From Dictyostelium discoideum (lineage: Eukaryota), in assembly GCA_000004695.1 (NCBI GenBank), contig CM000153.2, forward strand, positions 4,064,001 to 4,128,000: a DNA stretch of 64,000 nt, in the 5' to 3' direction. The notes beneath the pieces were generated by a model. That model did not search any database. It worked only from the letters and a program-made list of their open reading frames with translations, and had not been told where the DNA came from. The position numbers and the translations under genes were made by a program. This document shows, piece after piece, positions 14,435 through 33,183 of the stretch. The first letter of the stretch is position 1. Each line of letters starts with the position of its first letter.

Positions 14435-17400
14435 ATGAAATCAAATACCAATATTAGGGTTTTACTCGTGTCTGGTTTAATTTTGATTTTTATATTTTTA
14501 GGAATAAAATTCGAATTTATAAATAAAAATAATAATGATAAAATTGGAATAAATAGAAAATTAGAATTTAGTTATTTTACTAAAAATAATAATAATAATA
14601 ATAATAATAACTTTAAACAAGATCAATTAAAAAATAAAAAAGATAAAAGAATTTTATTAAAAAATGAAATAATTGATACAAACATTAAAAAGAATATTAA
14701 AAAAAATAATCAAAAGAATAATAATGAAGAAATTTTCCCAAATTTTATTTCTAGATTATTAAAATCAAATGATGATATGGAAATCCAACAATTTACATAT
14801 AGAAAGAGTCATTATATAGTTCAATTTAAAGATCATATAAATGATGAAACTAGAGAACAATTTAAGCAATTTTTAATTAATACTGATATTGTGTTAGATG
14901 AACAACCATATCAATCACATATAGTTAATTATATACCACATGATAGTTTCTTAGTATTAATGAATGATGAACAAAGTAATTTATTATCAAGTAAAGAATG
15001 GGTATCTTGGATTGGTGAGTTTGAACCATCAAATAAAATACATTTAAATTATAATGAAAAATCAATTGGATTGCCAGTTTATATTAAATTAAGTGATTCA
15101 ACAAATTCATTAATTCAAAGATGGGAGAATACATTAAATTCAATTTTAACATCATATAATTCAAAAGTTAAATTAACATTAATTAATCAAAAGAAATTAA
15201 AATCAATTGTATATTGTAATGATGAATCATCATCACAATCATCATGTTCATTAGTTAGTTCAGAAAAGTTAGTTTATCAATGGATTTCAGAACAAAGTGA
15301 AAGTAATTATATTGAAAGATCAGAGAAATTTCAAACTGCAAATAGATTATCACCAAAGGCAATTTTCGGTACAAAAGATACATTGGTTAATAATGATAGA
15401 ATTGATATTCCATTGAGAGGTAAAGGTCAGATATTGAGTATTGCCGATACTGGTTTAGATGGTAGCCATTGTTTCTTTTCAGATTCAAATAATCCAATAC
15501 CATATAATAGTGTAAATTTAAATCATAGAAAAGTTGTAACTTATATTGGTTCTCTACATGATAATGAGGATTATGTCGATGGTCACGGTACACATGTTTG
15601 TGGTTCTGCAGCAGGTGCACCAGAGGATTCTTCATTGGCTATTTCATCATTTAGTGGTCTTGCAACTGATGCAAAGATTGCATTCTTTGATTTAGCATCC
15701 GACCCAAGTAATAATGAACCAGTTCCACCAGAAGATTATAGCCAATTATATCAGCCATTATATAATGCAGGTGCAAGAGTACATGGTGATTCTTGGGGTT
15801 CTCTTTCAATACAAGGTTATTTGGGTAGTTATTCCGATGATGCTGGTAGTATTGATGATTTCCTTTACACTCATCCAGATTTCATTATTCTTAGAGCTGC
15901 TGGTAATAATGAACAATATTCATCATTGCTATCACAAGCAACAGCCAAAAATGTAATTACAGTTGGTGCCGAACAAACTACTCACGAAAGTTATACCACT
16001 GATGCATTGGAATATTCAAATTTTGAAACAGTAGCAAAGAGTACATTAAATTCATTATGCCAATCATTTGATGATAAATATTGTACATATACAACTGCTC
16101 AATGTTGTACAGAATATTCAACTGTTAAAGGTTTATCAGGCTGTTGTACATCTTATATTAAAAATTCATACGCTTCAATATTTTCCTCACAACCAGAATT
16201 ATATAATGAGAATAATATTTGTTCATTCTCTTCAAAAGGTCCAACACATGATGGTAGATTGAAACCTGATATAGTTGCCCCTGGTCAATATATTACATCG
16301 GCAAGATCAAATGGTGCAAATACAACCGATCAGTGTGGTGATGGTTCTTTACCAAATACAAATGCACTATTATCAGAATCTGGTACATCAATGGCAACAC
16401 CATTAGCAACAGCAGCAACAACAATTCTTAGACAATATTTAGTTGATGGTTATTATCCAACTGGTTCAATTGTAGAATCAAATAAATTACAACCAACTGG
16501 ATCATTATTAAAAGCATTAATGATTAATAATGCTCAGTTATTAAATGGTACATTCCCATTATCATCAACAAATACAAATCCATCAAATGCAGTATTTGAT
16601 ACATTTGCAGGTGCAAATTTTGTTCAAGGTTGGGGTTCACTTAGAATGAGTGAATGGTTATATGTTGAATCATCAGGTGTTAAACCAAAACCATCAAGAT
16701 GGGTTGGTATTGGTGAATTAGGTAAAGATAAAAAAGCATCAAATTGGAAAGAATATAGTTTATCAACTGGTCAAAATGTTTCATATTGTTTCACATATAA
16801 ACCATCATCATCAGGTAGTAATAGTGGTGGTATACCAAGAATTGTTGCAACATTAGTTTGGACAGATCCACCATCATATTCTGGTGCAAAATTAAATTTA
16901 GTAAATAATTTAGATTTAACAATGACAAATACTGAATCAGAATTTATATTTTATTCAAATTCTGGTGGTTCATCATATAATGGTACAAAAGGTACAACAT
17001 TACCACTACAAGATTCAATTAATAATGTTGAAGGTATAATCTATACACCAATTAATACCAAATCAGAAATTTCTTTTAGATTTATAATTGCAGGTACCAA
17101 TATACCAATTGGACCACAAAATTTCTCATTTGTATTCCATGGTGAAAATGGTGAATTTGATTGGGCTGATAGTTGTATGCAATGTAATCCAGATGATACA
17201 CAACCTTGTTTCATTGAAAATGGTGTTGGTTCTCAAACTTGTGGCGATGATTATTTATGGGGTCGTTGTTTAGTACAATCTTGTAATAACAATTATAATT
17301 ATAATTCAATCTCTGATAAATGTTCAAAATTCTTATCATATAATTATATCGTTATCATTGTTGCAGGTGGTACAATGTCATTGATTATCACTGTATTAAT

Positions 17401-30400: not shown

Positions 30401-33183
30401 TACTTTGGACAAAATGTATTGTACAATCTTGTAATGAAGGCTATAATTATAATTCACTCAAGAATACTTGTGATAAATTCTTATCATACAATTATATTAT
30501 CATTATCGTTGCAGGTGGTACTATGGTATTGATTATACTATTACTAATGTGGATAAAGTATCAAGAATATAAAGAGAGTAAAAGGGATAGTTTCCGTAGA
30601 TTCGATGATGGTACAGGTATTTTCGTTAGACCAAAGGATAAAGATGCAAAAGTTACGCCCCCTGATCTTTATAATTTAGTTTCACCATTCATTATCGAAT
30701 TAACAATTGCCACAGCATGTTCATTGGTCGCAACAGCAGCAAGTATCTTACAGCCATTCTATATTGGTAATATTGTAAACAACATCCCAACAACTAAAAG
30801 CATTGGTGAATTTAAGAGTGATTTCATTATTATCTTCATATTGGCATTCATTGAATTTTTATTTACAAATGTTGGTTCATGGATATCTGGTATTGTAAAT
30901 GAAAAGATGGTAATGAGATTACAAAATAAAGTATTCCGTGCATTGATTGCTCAAGATATGGGATTTTTCCAAAGAAATAATTCAGCATTGTTAATGAATG
31001 TTTTAATCGTTGATACACCAATGTTAAGATCGGCACTCACTGGTATACTATTATCAATTGCAACTGGTGTTTGTAAATTAGTTGGTAGTTTAGTATTCAT
31101 TTTCACAATTTCATGGAAACTTTCATTGGCATTCTTTGCAGCCGTACCAATTTTAGGTTTAGTAACTCAAATTCAATCACAATTCACTAAAAGATTAACT
31201 CGTCAATTATTATTCCATAATTCAAAAGCATCACAACATGGTACTGAGTCATTAACAAATATGCATGTAGTTACCAACTATTGTAAACAAGAGAAAGAAA
31301 TGGTTAAATATTCAGATCAATTGATGAATGTTTTCATTACTGCTAGAAAATTAATCATTACAAATACATTTGCTGGAACTGGTAAATGGTTATTAATAGA
31401 ATCATTAACATTTGTCATTCTTTATTTCTCTGCTTATTTAGTAATTCAAAAACAATTCACCGTTGGTTTAATGATTTCATTCTCTTTATACATTGGTTAT
31501 GTTGTTGATGCTTCAAGTTCTCTATTTGGTGTTTATGTTAGTTATATTCAATGTTTAGCTTCTGCAACTAGAGTTTTCATGATTTTAAGATCTGCACCAA
31601 GAAAAAGAACAACTTTAGAAGAAGAAGAAGCTGATAGATTAGCTGGTTTAAGTGGTGGTGGTGGTGGTGGTGGTGATAATGGTGATGATAAAAAAGATAA
31701 ACAAAATATTGAAAATGGTAAAGATGTTTTACCTTCAAATATTATTACACCAATTGATAATGTTGAAAATAGTAATGGTAAACAAGATGATCCAAATAAT
31801 AATAATAACAATATTGGTAATCTTGATTATAGTGAACAATTAGATGGTGTTTCAACAGTTGCTGATAGTACAGTTGGTTTAACTAAAAGAGAATTAAAAA
31901 AACAAAAAGAAAAAGAACAAAAAGAATATTTCAAACAAACTGGTATTTCAGTTGCTGAAACTCCAACATTTTTACCATCAAGTTATACAGAGTTAACAGA
32001 ATGTAGAGGTGAAATTGAATTTAAGAATGTATCATTCCGTTATCCAACTAGACCAGATGTACAAGTTTTACATAATATCAATATGAAATTTGAAGCTGGT
32101 AAATGCTATGGTTTGGTTGGTCCTTCAGGTAGTGGTAAATCAACAACATTGGAATTGATTTCAAAATTCTATCCACTTCATGGCGAGACTGGTGGTAAAA
32201 TTTACATGGATGGTATTGATATTGCAAAAATTAGACCAAACAATCTTAGAAGTTTCGTTACAAACGTTCATCAACATCCTTTCCTATTCGATGCTACGAT
32301 TGGTGAAAACATTGGTTATGCAATTGATAATCCAACTCAAGAGGATATCATTGAAGCTGCCAAATTGGCATATGCTCATGAATTCATTAATGATTTACCA
32401 AAGAAGTATGATACTCAAATTGGAGAAGCTGGTAATTTATCAGGTGGTCAAAAGAAAAGAATTGCAGTAGCTCGTGCAATTTGTGCAAAGAGAAAGATTA
32501 TGTTATTGGATGAAATCACTGCTGAGTTAGATCCAGAATCTGAAGAAGCCATTACTCAAAGTATTAAAGTTTTAACTCAAGGTCATACCGTTGTAATGGT
32601 AGCTCATAAAGTTGCTGCTGTACGTGATTGTGATAAAATCTTTGTTTTAGAGAAAGGTTATTTAGTTGAAGAAGGTACTCATGACGAACTCATGGCAAAT
32701 AAAGGAAAATATTATAGAATGTTTAGTGAAGATAAAGATGATACTCCTTTACAAAATAATAATAATAATAAAAATAATAATAATAATAATAATAATAATG
32801 AGCCTTCATCTTCCTCAACACCACCAAATGATCAACCAACACCACCTCCACAAGAACAACAAGAACAAAAAAATGATCAACCACCACCACCACCTCCACA
32901 AGAACAACAAGAACAACAAGAACAACAACAACAACAACAACAAGAACAACAACAACAACAACAACAACAACAACAACAACAACAACAACAACAACAACAA
33001 CAACAACAACAACAACAACAACAACAACAACAACAACAACAACAAAATGACCAACCTCCAAATGATTATGATCAAGTACCACCACCTCCACCTTTGCCAA
33101 GTGAGTCACCTTCACCACCAACTGGAAATAATGATGGCCAACCACTTGTTCAAATGGATGAAGAAAATGATGAAGAGAGATAG
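27463..33183 (+). CDS. tagB: Subtilisin-like serine protease / ABC-B half transporter fusion, copy 3 (1906 aa), with an N-terminal poly-Asn insert and a C-terminal Gln/Pro-rich tail
   Basis: Same domain order; the extra ~150 aa C-terminal tail carries (CAA)n-encoded poly-Q and PPPPLP motifs; symbol assigned by length (tagB 1906 aa). Confidence 0.9.
32935..33050 (+). repeat. (CAA)n coding microsatellite encoding ~38 Gln
   Basis: Seen directly. Confidence 0.9.

Follow-up and report, generated by a model that had tools for sequence, protein, structure and literature searches.

Is the tandem array of the protease–transporter genes tagD, tagC and tagB, located in a 64,000-nucleotide (nt) stretch of the Dictyostelium discoideum genome (assembly GCA_000004695.1, contig CM000153.2, positions 4,064,001 to 4,128,000 of the forward strand; hereafter the window, meaning the whole stretch analysed, with positions counted from its first letter), a product of the D. 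discoideum lineage alone, or is it older? According to Glockner et al. 2016 (PMC4931340), the duplication of tagB and tagD took place 'in D. discoideum only', and tagB counts in published comparative genomics as an innovation specific to D. discoideum among development-essential genes. Our data indicate an older three-gene array: the triplication appears to predate the split between D. discoideum and Dictyostelium purpureum and to have been overwritten in patches by gene conversion, a reading that conflicts with the published statement and corrects it modestly. The tagD-tagC-tagB cluster is already known, and finding it again adds nothing; what is new here is modest, namely the old triplication, the concerted evolution and one misannotated D. 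purpureum copy. Taken jointly, the identity of the cluster, the layout predicted for its proteins and an old triplication with patchy gene conversion make up a reading that we regard as very probable.

The three Tag genes of the window

Three paralogous open reading frames (ORFs) lie head to tail on the + strand, with the coordinates and lengths (in amino acids, aa) that a sequence-only reading of the window had given, and are separated by two short spacers:

14435-19912, + strand: tagD (DDB_G0286123), ORF1, 1825 aa, intronless; exact match to XP_637863.1/Q8T9W1; motifs intact
19913-21056, no strand: spacer 1, between tagD and tagC, 1144 base pairs (bp), 13% guanine plus cytosine (GC)
21057-26282, + strand: tagC (DDB_G0286121), ORF2, 1741 aa, intronless; length and middle position agree with the published table; motifs intact
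26283-27462, no strand: spacer 2, between tagC and tagB, 1180 bp, 12% GC
27463-33183, + strand: tagB (DDB_G0286119), ORF3, 1906 aa, intronless; length and position agree with the published table; motifs intact

The coding blocks have a GC content of about 30%, against a window background of 11–17% and 12–15% in the flanks of the Tag ORFs. Because they run uninterrupted for 5.2–5.7 kb in DNA this AT-rich, the three ORFs cannot have arisen by chance.

An exact sequence look-up identified ORF1 as TagD of D. discoideum AX4 (XP_637863.1, UniRef100_Q8T9W1). ORF2 and ORF3 had no exact match in the sequence collection searched. A homology search of the same collection with ORF3 returned a 92% protein of a second assembly labelled D. 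discoideum, the Dictyostelium citrinum ortholog, TagD and a few dictyostelid-like fusions, and no AX4 TagB or TagC entry. As exact entries were lacking from this collection, ORF2 and ORF3 were named from a table in the supplement to Glockner et al. 2016 (PMC4931340), which lists tagB (DDB_G0286119) with 1906 aa, tagC (DDB_G0286121) with 1741 aa and tagD (DDB_G0286123) with 1825 aa; these lengths are those of ORF3, ORF2 and ORF1, with tagC in the centre. Length and locus order thus support the assignment of ORF2 to tagC and of ORF3 to tagB. In D. citrinum, the gene at the centre of the array shares 90.5% identity with ORF2, and the ortholog of ORF3 (P0003) shares 87% with ORF3. The match to tagD/tagC/tagB that the sequence-only reading had proposed is supported, as is its remark that the family is described and not novel, with which the literature on the Tag genes agrees; neither best matches outside the Tag family nor broken frames were found, ORF1 being exactly TagD and all three ORFs being uninterrupted.

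Spacer 1 presumably contains the tagD terminator and the tagC promoter. Among its few non-homopolymer elements is a 46-bp unit repeated 2.3 times in tandem (20077-20182), which is a possible regulatory element. Over the 3' end of tagB, two further ORFs of 167–182 aa (32666-33214, + strand; 32723-33226, - strand) lie on an (ACA)49/CAA repeat; they are artefacts of the repeat that encodes the poly-Gln tail of TagB.

Orthologous loci and the D. purpureum gene model

The D-C-B array and its neighbours are kept in D. citrinum and in the second assembly labelled D. discoideum, with Romo1 upstream and UCR_14kD, RGS and M48 peptidase genes downstream. The left-hand neighbour of the array in the window, for which the expect value (E) of the Pfam match is given, is:

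13065-13451, + strand: Romo1-family gene (PF10247, E 7.5e-19)

In D. citrinum (locus L004, 8358-8741) and in D. purpureum (locus L002, 8003-8191), too, the first Tag gene has a Romo1 gene upstream of it. In a further dictyostelid gene model (P0007, eukprot), a Romo1 domain is fused onto a Tag protein, probably as a merged gene model that reflects the same Romo1–Tag synteny.

The D. purpureum locus (L002, GL870963.1) contains three Tag ORFs behind Romo1, at 10001-15364, 16291-21585 and 27218 to the locus end, in the same order as in D. discoideum; this is the outcome of the synteny comparison with D. purpureum that had been proposed from the sequence alone. The first, second and third of these genes are called Dp_1, Dp_2 and Dp_3 below. 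The published table (PMC4931340) has only two D. purpureum Tag genes, of 1742 and 1708 aa, because the model DICPUDRAFT_86237 (P0005, 1742 aa) hides one. That model is chimeric: the first ORF supplies its initial 27 residues and the second its final 1707, and the first D. purpureum Tag ORF (1788 aa, motifs intact) sits in the annotated 'intron'. The orthology of TagB and TagC with the D. purpureum genes has been considered unclear, and those genes were named by gene order (Sucgang et al. 2011, PMC3188802). Between the second and third D. purpureum Tag genes lies an ABCG-type gene (ABC2_membrane and ABC_tran; L002 21678-25845, - strand), where D. discoideum has the 1.18-kb spacer.

In the second assembly labelled D. 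discoideum (GCA_054859355.1), the Tag orthologs differ from those of the window by a proportion of synonymous differences (pS) of about 0.04–0.19, far above the within-species expectation. Hypervariability of the Tag genes within D. discoideum, considered because the proteins of this assembly differ by 4–7%, was rejected, as the flanks are equally divergent, at 88–90% nt identity. In the tagB model of this assembly (P0002), 16 residues that span most of the N-terminal hydrophobic segment are lost to a spurious intron, the ORF being 1844 aa long and the model 1828.

Mosaic history of the array

The history of the array differs from one region of the genes to another. The regions, with tagC coordinates first and all on the + strand, are:

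21087-21143 (tagD 14462-14518; tagB 27496-27552), + strand: N-terminal hydrophobic segment; Kyte–Doolittle peaks 2.4–2.6
21390-21902, aa 112-183 and 203-282 of TagC (tagD 14804-15319; tagB 27967-28494), + strand: two tandem ferredoxin-like pro-like domains, predicted from an AlphaFold model
22002-23219 (tagD 15419-16636; tagB 28594-29793), + strand: S8 subtilase catalytic domain; PF00082, E 2e-48 in TagC
23304-23759 (tagD 16700-17164; tagB 29854-30312), + strand: KP-43-type C-terminal beta-barrel (C-domain), predicted from phmmer, Foldseek and the model
23769-23999 (tagD 17174-17404; tagB 30322-30552), + strand: 7-Cys module and extra transmembrane (TM) helix, TM0; Cys positions and hydropathy
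24147-24956 (tagD 17657-18466; tagB 30700-31509), + strand: ABCB-type six-helix transmembrane domain (TMD); PF00664, E 5e-55
25029-25391 (tagD 18539-19147; tagB 31582-32001), + strand: low-complexity Asn/Asp/Gly-rich linker between the TMD and the nucleotide-binding domain (NBD); seen in the translations
25458-26126 (tagD 19214-19888; tagB 32068-32739), + strand: NBD; PF00005, E 5e-28, and motifs

Trees were built by neighbour-joining (NJ) with bootstrap on segments of 93–320 columns from the three named species and three outgroups; Dp_3, which is incomplete at the locus end, was left out of the NBD comparison. Over the 320 gap-free columns of the TMD, TagB groups with Dp_3 in 99% of replicates and TagC with Dp_2 in 93%, while the D. 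discoideum/D. citrinum paralogs are monophyletic in 0%. Over the pro-like region and the N-terminal part of S8, those same paralogs are monophyletic in 98–99% of replicates, and it is the pro-domains, parts of S8 and the NBD that group by species. Counts of quartet-informative sites, given as orthology:species:control, follow the same division. The TMD yields 22:3:5 (B,C with Dp_3,Dp_2), 12:7:3 (D,C with Dp_1,Dp_2) and 17:6:5 (D,B with Dp_1,Dp_3), and the pro-like region, for the same quartets, 4:11:0, 0:29:1 and 2:19:1. When D. citrinum is taken for comparison, species-pattern sites exceed orthology-pattern sites in the pro-like region (9:5 and 7:4, control 0–1), and all other regions are overwhelmingly orthologous; the excess implies that conversion in the pro-like region continued after that recent split.

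Synonymous divergence between the AX4 paralogs points the same way. Their pS is 0.11–0.15 in the pro-like region, 0.15–0.22 in C-terminal S8 and 0.18–0.24 in the NBD, at or below the values of D. discoideum–D. citrinum orthologs over the same codons (0.19–0.21, 0.19–0.28 and 0.20–0.25, respectively). The pro-like region is the most homogenised, the paralogs being 91–94% identical there at the nt level. Paralog pS reaches 0.46–0.60 in the middle of S8, the most diverged part of that domain, and 0.42–0.56 in the Cys module and TM0, near the values obtained with D. purpureum (0.5–0.8). A Sawyer-type permutation test on 1327 polymorphic sites detected pair-specific identical tracts much longer than expected: the pair tagD–tagC has one of 145 nt (aa 659-707), and the pair tagC–tagB has one of 88 nt (tagD-equivalent aa 1573-1602, in the NBD), both with P<0.0005. 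Directly after the catalytic Ser, TagC and Dp_2 share TSF, as against TPL in every other sequence. The spacers match one another only in low-complexity, non-colinear stretches, with no sign in them of spacer paralogy. The simplest reading of these patterns is a triplication that preceded the split of D. discoideum and D. purpureum, followed by patchy gene conversion that has been confined to the coding regions.

The alternative in the literature would derive tagB and tagD from tagC in the D. discoideum lineage only, with an independent duplication in D. purpureum and with regional similarity reflecting differing constraint. It is the history stated by Glockner et al. 2016 (PMC4931340), it agrees with the two genes of the public D. 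purpureum annotation, and it would explain why the whole-ectodomain, pro-like, S8 and NBD trees cluster the paralogs by species. It does not explain the TMD, where the bootstraps of 99% and 93% join TagB with Dp_3 and TagC with Dp_2, where species clustering falls to 0% and where the quartet sites stand at 22:3:5, nor the three intact D. purpureum ORFs in the same order beside the same Romo1 neighbour, nor the TSF shared by TagC and Dp_2. Moreover, constraint cannot bring the synonymous divergence of paralogs under the ortholog level in the same codons, nor can it produce pair-specific tracts. A duplication restricted to D. discoideum is therefore disfavoured, and we consider it very unlikely.

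Several points weigh against an old triplication and against the layout joined to it. The NJ trees rest on 93–320 columns from three species and three outgroups, and Dp_3 breaks off at the locus end and is missing from the NBD comparison. A clade of TagD with Dp_1 receives at most 13% NJ bootstrap, so that its support comes from quartet sites only (12:7:3 and 17:6:5). Some short runs in the permutation test are probably local alignment effects. The names of ORF2 and ORF3 follow length and locus order, and not a match of residues to deposited TagC and TagB. Protein topology and pro-domain function are predictions, and the fold matches of the pro-domains are weak.

We nevertheless favour a triplication that came before D. 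discoideum and D. purpureum parted. Repeated gene conversion would have made the copies more alike in the pro-domains, in the flanks of the catalytic domain and in the NBD, and the mid-S8 insert, the C-domain, the Cys module with TM0 and most of the TMD would have stayed paralog-specific throughout. On this reading, the array looks younger in published work because gene conversion blurred its history and because the chimeric D. purpureum model hid one copy. An older array changes the counting of 'lineage-specific developmental genes' at this locus. No relevant paper on gene conversion at tagB/tagC was found in the literature searched.

Selection and functional status of the copies

The pairwise alignment and dN/dS comparison suggested by the sequence-only reading gave 72–75% aa identity among the three Tag proteins (80–81% nt identity over aligned codons) and, between D. 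discoideum and D. citrinum orthologs, a ratio of nonsynonymous to synonymous differences (pN/pS) of about 0.01–0.3 in every region of tagD, tagC and tagB. By these measures, all three copies are judged to be intact, functional genes under purifying selection.

A decaying or functionless duplicate, most plausibly tagD, would fit the fact that no function of tagD is reported in the literature searched. (A bioRxiv mention of 'tagD' proved to be the string 'tag_dis' and not the gene.) Such decay is nonetheless hardly credible: the 1825-codon ORF of tagD is uninterrupted, its protease and ATPase motifs are all intact, and D. citrinum has an intact tagD ortholog, with 88% identity over the C-terminal 936 aa compared and a pN/pS of about 0.04–0.3.

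Within the favoured picture of an old and patchily converted array, the KP-43-type C-domain stands out. Between paralogs, its pN is about equal to its pS (dN/dS 0.75–1.1), and between D. discoideum and D. citrinum orthologs pN/pS is about 0.2. This pattern suggests paralog-specific adaptation, or differences selectively retained against conversion. It also suggests paralog-specific function in the parts that escape homogenisation, and each paralog's specificity for substrate or partner may reside in the regions that stay distinct; what sets TagB, TagC and TagD apart in function is probably encoded in the mid-S8 insert, the C-domain, the Cys module and the TMD. A bolder proposal is that conversion keeps the pro-domains, the catalytic flanks and the NBD dimer interface interchangeable, for mixed dimers and/or mutual maturation, and that selection preserves paralog-specific differences in the parts that face the substrate, namely the Cys-rich insert of mid-S8, the C-domain, the Cys module and most of the TMD. 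We regard this as speculative and rather unlikely; if true, the array would process signals as a combinatorial machine of three parts, already present before D. discoideum and D. purpureum diverged, and TagD would be its third partner, so far unrecognised.

Predicted domain layout

Each ORF encodes, once and in this order, Peptidase_S8, ABC_membrane and ABC_tran in Pfam searches, for which the thresholds were E<=0.01 on full proteins and E<=10 on isolated segments. The aa spans are 329-734, 1076-1344 and 1595-1744 in TagD, 316-721, 1031-1300 and 1468-1618 in TagC, and 378-777, 1081-1349 and 1536-1687 in TagB. The domain list made from the sequence alone stood as far as S8, the Cys module, the TM helix, the TMD and the NBD are concerned; it had missed the beta-barrel, the Cys-rich insert of S8 and the TMD–NBD linker.

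The N-terminal hydrophobic segment is predicted to be a signal peptide or signal anchor. Behind it, a separate AlphaFold model of TagC residues 106-300 (predicted local distance difference test, pLDDT, 90; predicted template-modelling score, pTM, 0.81) contains two beta-alpha-beta-beta-alpha-beta units, and an AlphaFold2 model of residues 101-960 (pTM 0.80) places the same tandem units directly upstream of the catalytic domain. A Foldseek search with the pro-like model gave weak matches, mostly to generic double-ferredoxin/ACT folds; one of them is to pro-subtilisin E in its unprocessed form (3whi), at E 3e-3. Inhibitor_I9 (PF05922) was matched neither in the full proteins (E<=0.01) nor in the isolated segments (E<=10). 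Among other Pfam domains, the pro-like and Cys-rich segments gave at E<=10 only sub-threshold Thioredoxin_6, CPL1-like and similar hits, the CPL1-like one being the sole hit of the 7-Cys module with TM0, and NCBIfam returned nothing for the Tag ectodomain. The arrangement fits a propeptide, of which cleavage and inhibition are putative. The label 'I9-like propeptide' used by the earlier reading is acceptable as a description of the fold; the models contain a tandem pair rather than one domain, and Pfam I9 does not match.

The S8 domain is matched by PF00082 with E = 1e-48 to 1e-53 across the three proteins, and all three have the motifs ADTGLD, HGTH, AAGN and GTSMA; the catalytic residues of TagC are Asp326, His372, Asn477 and Ser637. 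Inside S8 lies a Cys-rich insert of about 70 aa (22572-22781 in tagC). Against sequences in the Protein Data Bank (PDB), the best solved relatives of the TagC ectodomain are KP-43 (1WMD, E 2e-39) and SubHal (5FAX). Three stretches of the phmmer alignment cover KP-43 residues 18-431, of which residues 324-431 align to query fragment residues 668-791, a segment that is all-beta in the AlphaFold model, and Foldseek matches the TagC model to 1wmd with E 1.7e-33 and a target-normalised TM-score of 0.81. On these alignments and models, the Tag protease is assigned to the KP-43 type, including the KP-43 C-terminal beta-barrel.

In all three proteins, a conserved membrane-proximal 7-Cys module is followed by TM0 (Kyte–Doolittle peak 2.7–3.0), with 5–9 Lys/Arg in the 30 residues after it and 19–21 Cys in the ectodomain before it. 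The TMD of ABCB exporters starts with a cytoplasmic N-terminus. Given this cytoplasmic start, the N-terminal hydrophobic segment and the one extra TM helix, the protease is predicted to be exoplasmic; the Lys/Arg after TM0 and the Cys-rich ectodomain support this prediction for the whole protease part. The chain would thus run from the signal or anchor through two pro-domains, the KP-43-type subtilisin with its beta-barrel and the disulfide-rich module, all on the exoplasmic side, and TM0 would return it to the cytoplasm ahead of a P-glycoprotein-like ABCB half-transporter. Such a half-transporter, with six helices and one ATPase domain, must pair with a second half to work.

The TMD–NBD linker (120–200 aa) has a paralog identity of 6–38% and a dN/dS of 0.9–1.7. 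All three NBDs contain the ABCB motif set of Walker A, Q-loop, LSGGQ signature, Walker B (IMLLDE, with the catalytic Glu) and H-loop (VAHK); in TagC, Walker A, the signature, Walker B and the H-loop are located at 1485, 1590, 1610 and 1644. Among solved chains, ABCB1, ABCB4 and ABCB11 are closest to the TMD and NBD (ABCB4/ABCB1, E 1e-153), followed by ABCB9/TAPL and ABCB10.

Reported functions

The Tag subfamily has been described as novel in its arrangement of domains, with a serine protease, six TM helices and one ABC domain, and within it TagA acts in early cell-fate choice, TagB in prestalk differentiation, and TagC in processing AcbA, an acyl-CoA-binding protein, to yield SDF-2, a peptide of spore differentiation (PMC3188802). 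The developmental role given for the subfamily in the literature includes, besides SDF-1 and SDF-2 processing, the arrest of mutants as tight aggregates. TagB is linked to the processing of SDF-1, and gamma-aminobutyric acid (GABA) signalling leads to exposure of the TagC protease on the prestalk cell surface, for which ABC activity is required (PMC3743828, PMC4334915). [quoted passage not shown] The roles in prestalk specification and SDF-2 signalling that the sequence-only reading gave for TagB and TagC agree with these reports (PMC3743828, PMC3188802, PMC2828923).

Other features of the window

A 1726-aa ORF (48361-53541, - strand) with DEP, LRR, Roc, COR-A and protein kinase domains encodes a Roco-family kinase, unrelated to the array. 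Pfam also identified Sec63/DnaJ (803-2836, - strand), a Ser/Thr protein kinase (3973-6558, - strand), an M48 peptidase exon (42260-43075, + strand), a WD40 protein (55679-57103, - strand) and a NIF-type phosphatase (62891-63685, + strand), all five of ordinary housekeeping type. A 341-aa low-complexity ORF rich in Asn, Gln, Thr and Pro (58313-59338, - strand) has no Pfam match and is the source of the strong GC skew at 58–60 kb. No tRNA genes were found in the window.

Rarity of the fusion and comparison with known systems

To see how widespread the fusion is, the part of TagC that runs from S8 through the TMD was searched with phmmer against 1.84 billion cluster representatives, and the best 150 matches were examined. 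Three of these had fusion-like length and coverage. One is the cluster representative of TagB/C/D; the others, P0117 and P0118, are metagenome proteins, and both contain S8 and ABC domains by Pfam, by which three other long matches were S8-only. P0117 (JGI metagenome, 1678 aa) has S8, ABC_membrane and ABC_tran, and no literal DTG, HGTH, GTSMA, Walker A or LSGGQ string was found in it; it is a Tag-like protein, divergent or else degenerate, whose source lies outside the classical dictyostelids. As its amino-acid composition is ordinary and non-AT-biased, the S8–ABC architecture is not strictly limited to AT-rich dictyostelids. Among the best 150 matches, the fusion is very rare.

The sequence-only reading had likened this fusion to bacteriocin processing and export systems, in which peptidase-containing ABC transporters (PCATs) cut and export their cargo. 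The C39 peptidase of PCATs is cytoplasmic and cleaves the cargo before export. A PCAT-like coupled process, in which a precursor peptide is both exported by the ABC half and cleaved by the protease fused to it, would agree with the physical fusion of protease and exporter, with the scores of the ABC half against TAP, HlyB and bacteriocin-exporter NCBIfam models and against ABCB9/TAPL, and with the reported requirement of ABC activity for TagC function (PMC3743828). The NCBIfam scores, however, are all far under their cut-offs (e.g. bacteriocin_ABC, TIGR01193, 217 bits against 524, for the ABC part only), no C39 domain was detected by Pfam in the three Tag proteins, and the peptidase is of family S8 and is predicted to lie on the exoplasmic and not the cytoplasmic side. 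Furthermore, AcbA comes from prespore cells and is cut at the prestalk cell surface, and recombinant AcbA is processed once TagC is exposed (PMC2828923). We consider a PCAT-like process improbable; because of the predicted exoplasmic protease and the literature on AcbA handling, the analogy is superficial, and the resemblance had been overstated.

What Tag and the PCATs of bacteriocin/NHLP export do have in common is an N-terminal protease on a type-IV ABC exporter half that needs dimerisation. PCATs carry a cytoplasmic C39 cysteine peptidase that removes the leader from the transported cargo, whereas Tag carries an S8 serine protease, predicted to be exoplasmic, whose substrate is released by other cells. 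With KP-43 and SubHal, the oxidatively stable alkaline subtilases of Bacillus (1WMD, 5FAX), Tag aligns over the catalytic domain and the C-terminal beta-barrel; unlike these secreted enzymes, it has a Cys-rich insert of about 70 aa in S8, an extra 7-Cys module and a tether to a membrane transporter. With ABCB1/4/11, ABCB9/TAPL and ABCB10, its TMD and NBD can be aligned from end to end (E 1e-153 to 1e-80) and have canonical motifs; unlike them, Tag has an extra N-terminal TM helix, a large exoplasmic enzyme, by prediction, and a 120–200-aa linker between TMD and NBD. Its own family is the Dictyostelium Tag subfamily (TagA-D), with a protease, six TM helices and one ABC domain in the order published (PMC3188802). 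From that subfamily, the array described here differs in nothing of kind; what is added is a finer domain map, together with the probable age of the B/C/D triplet and its patchy concerted evolution.

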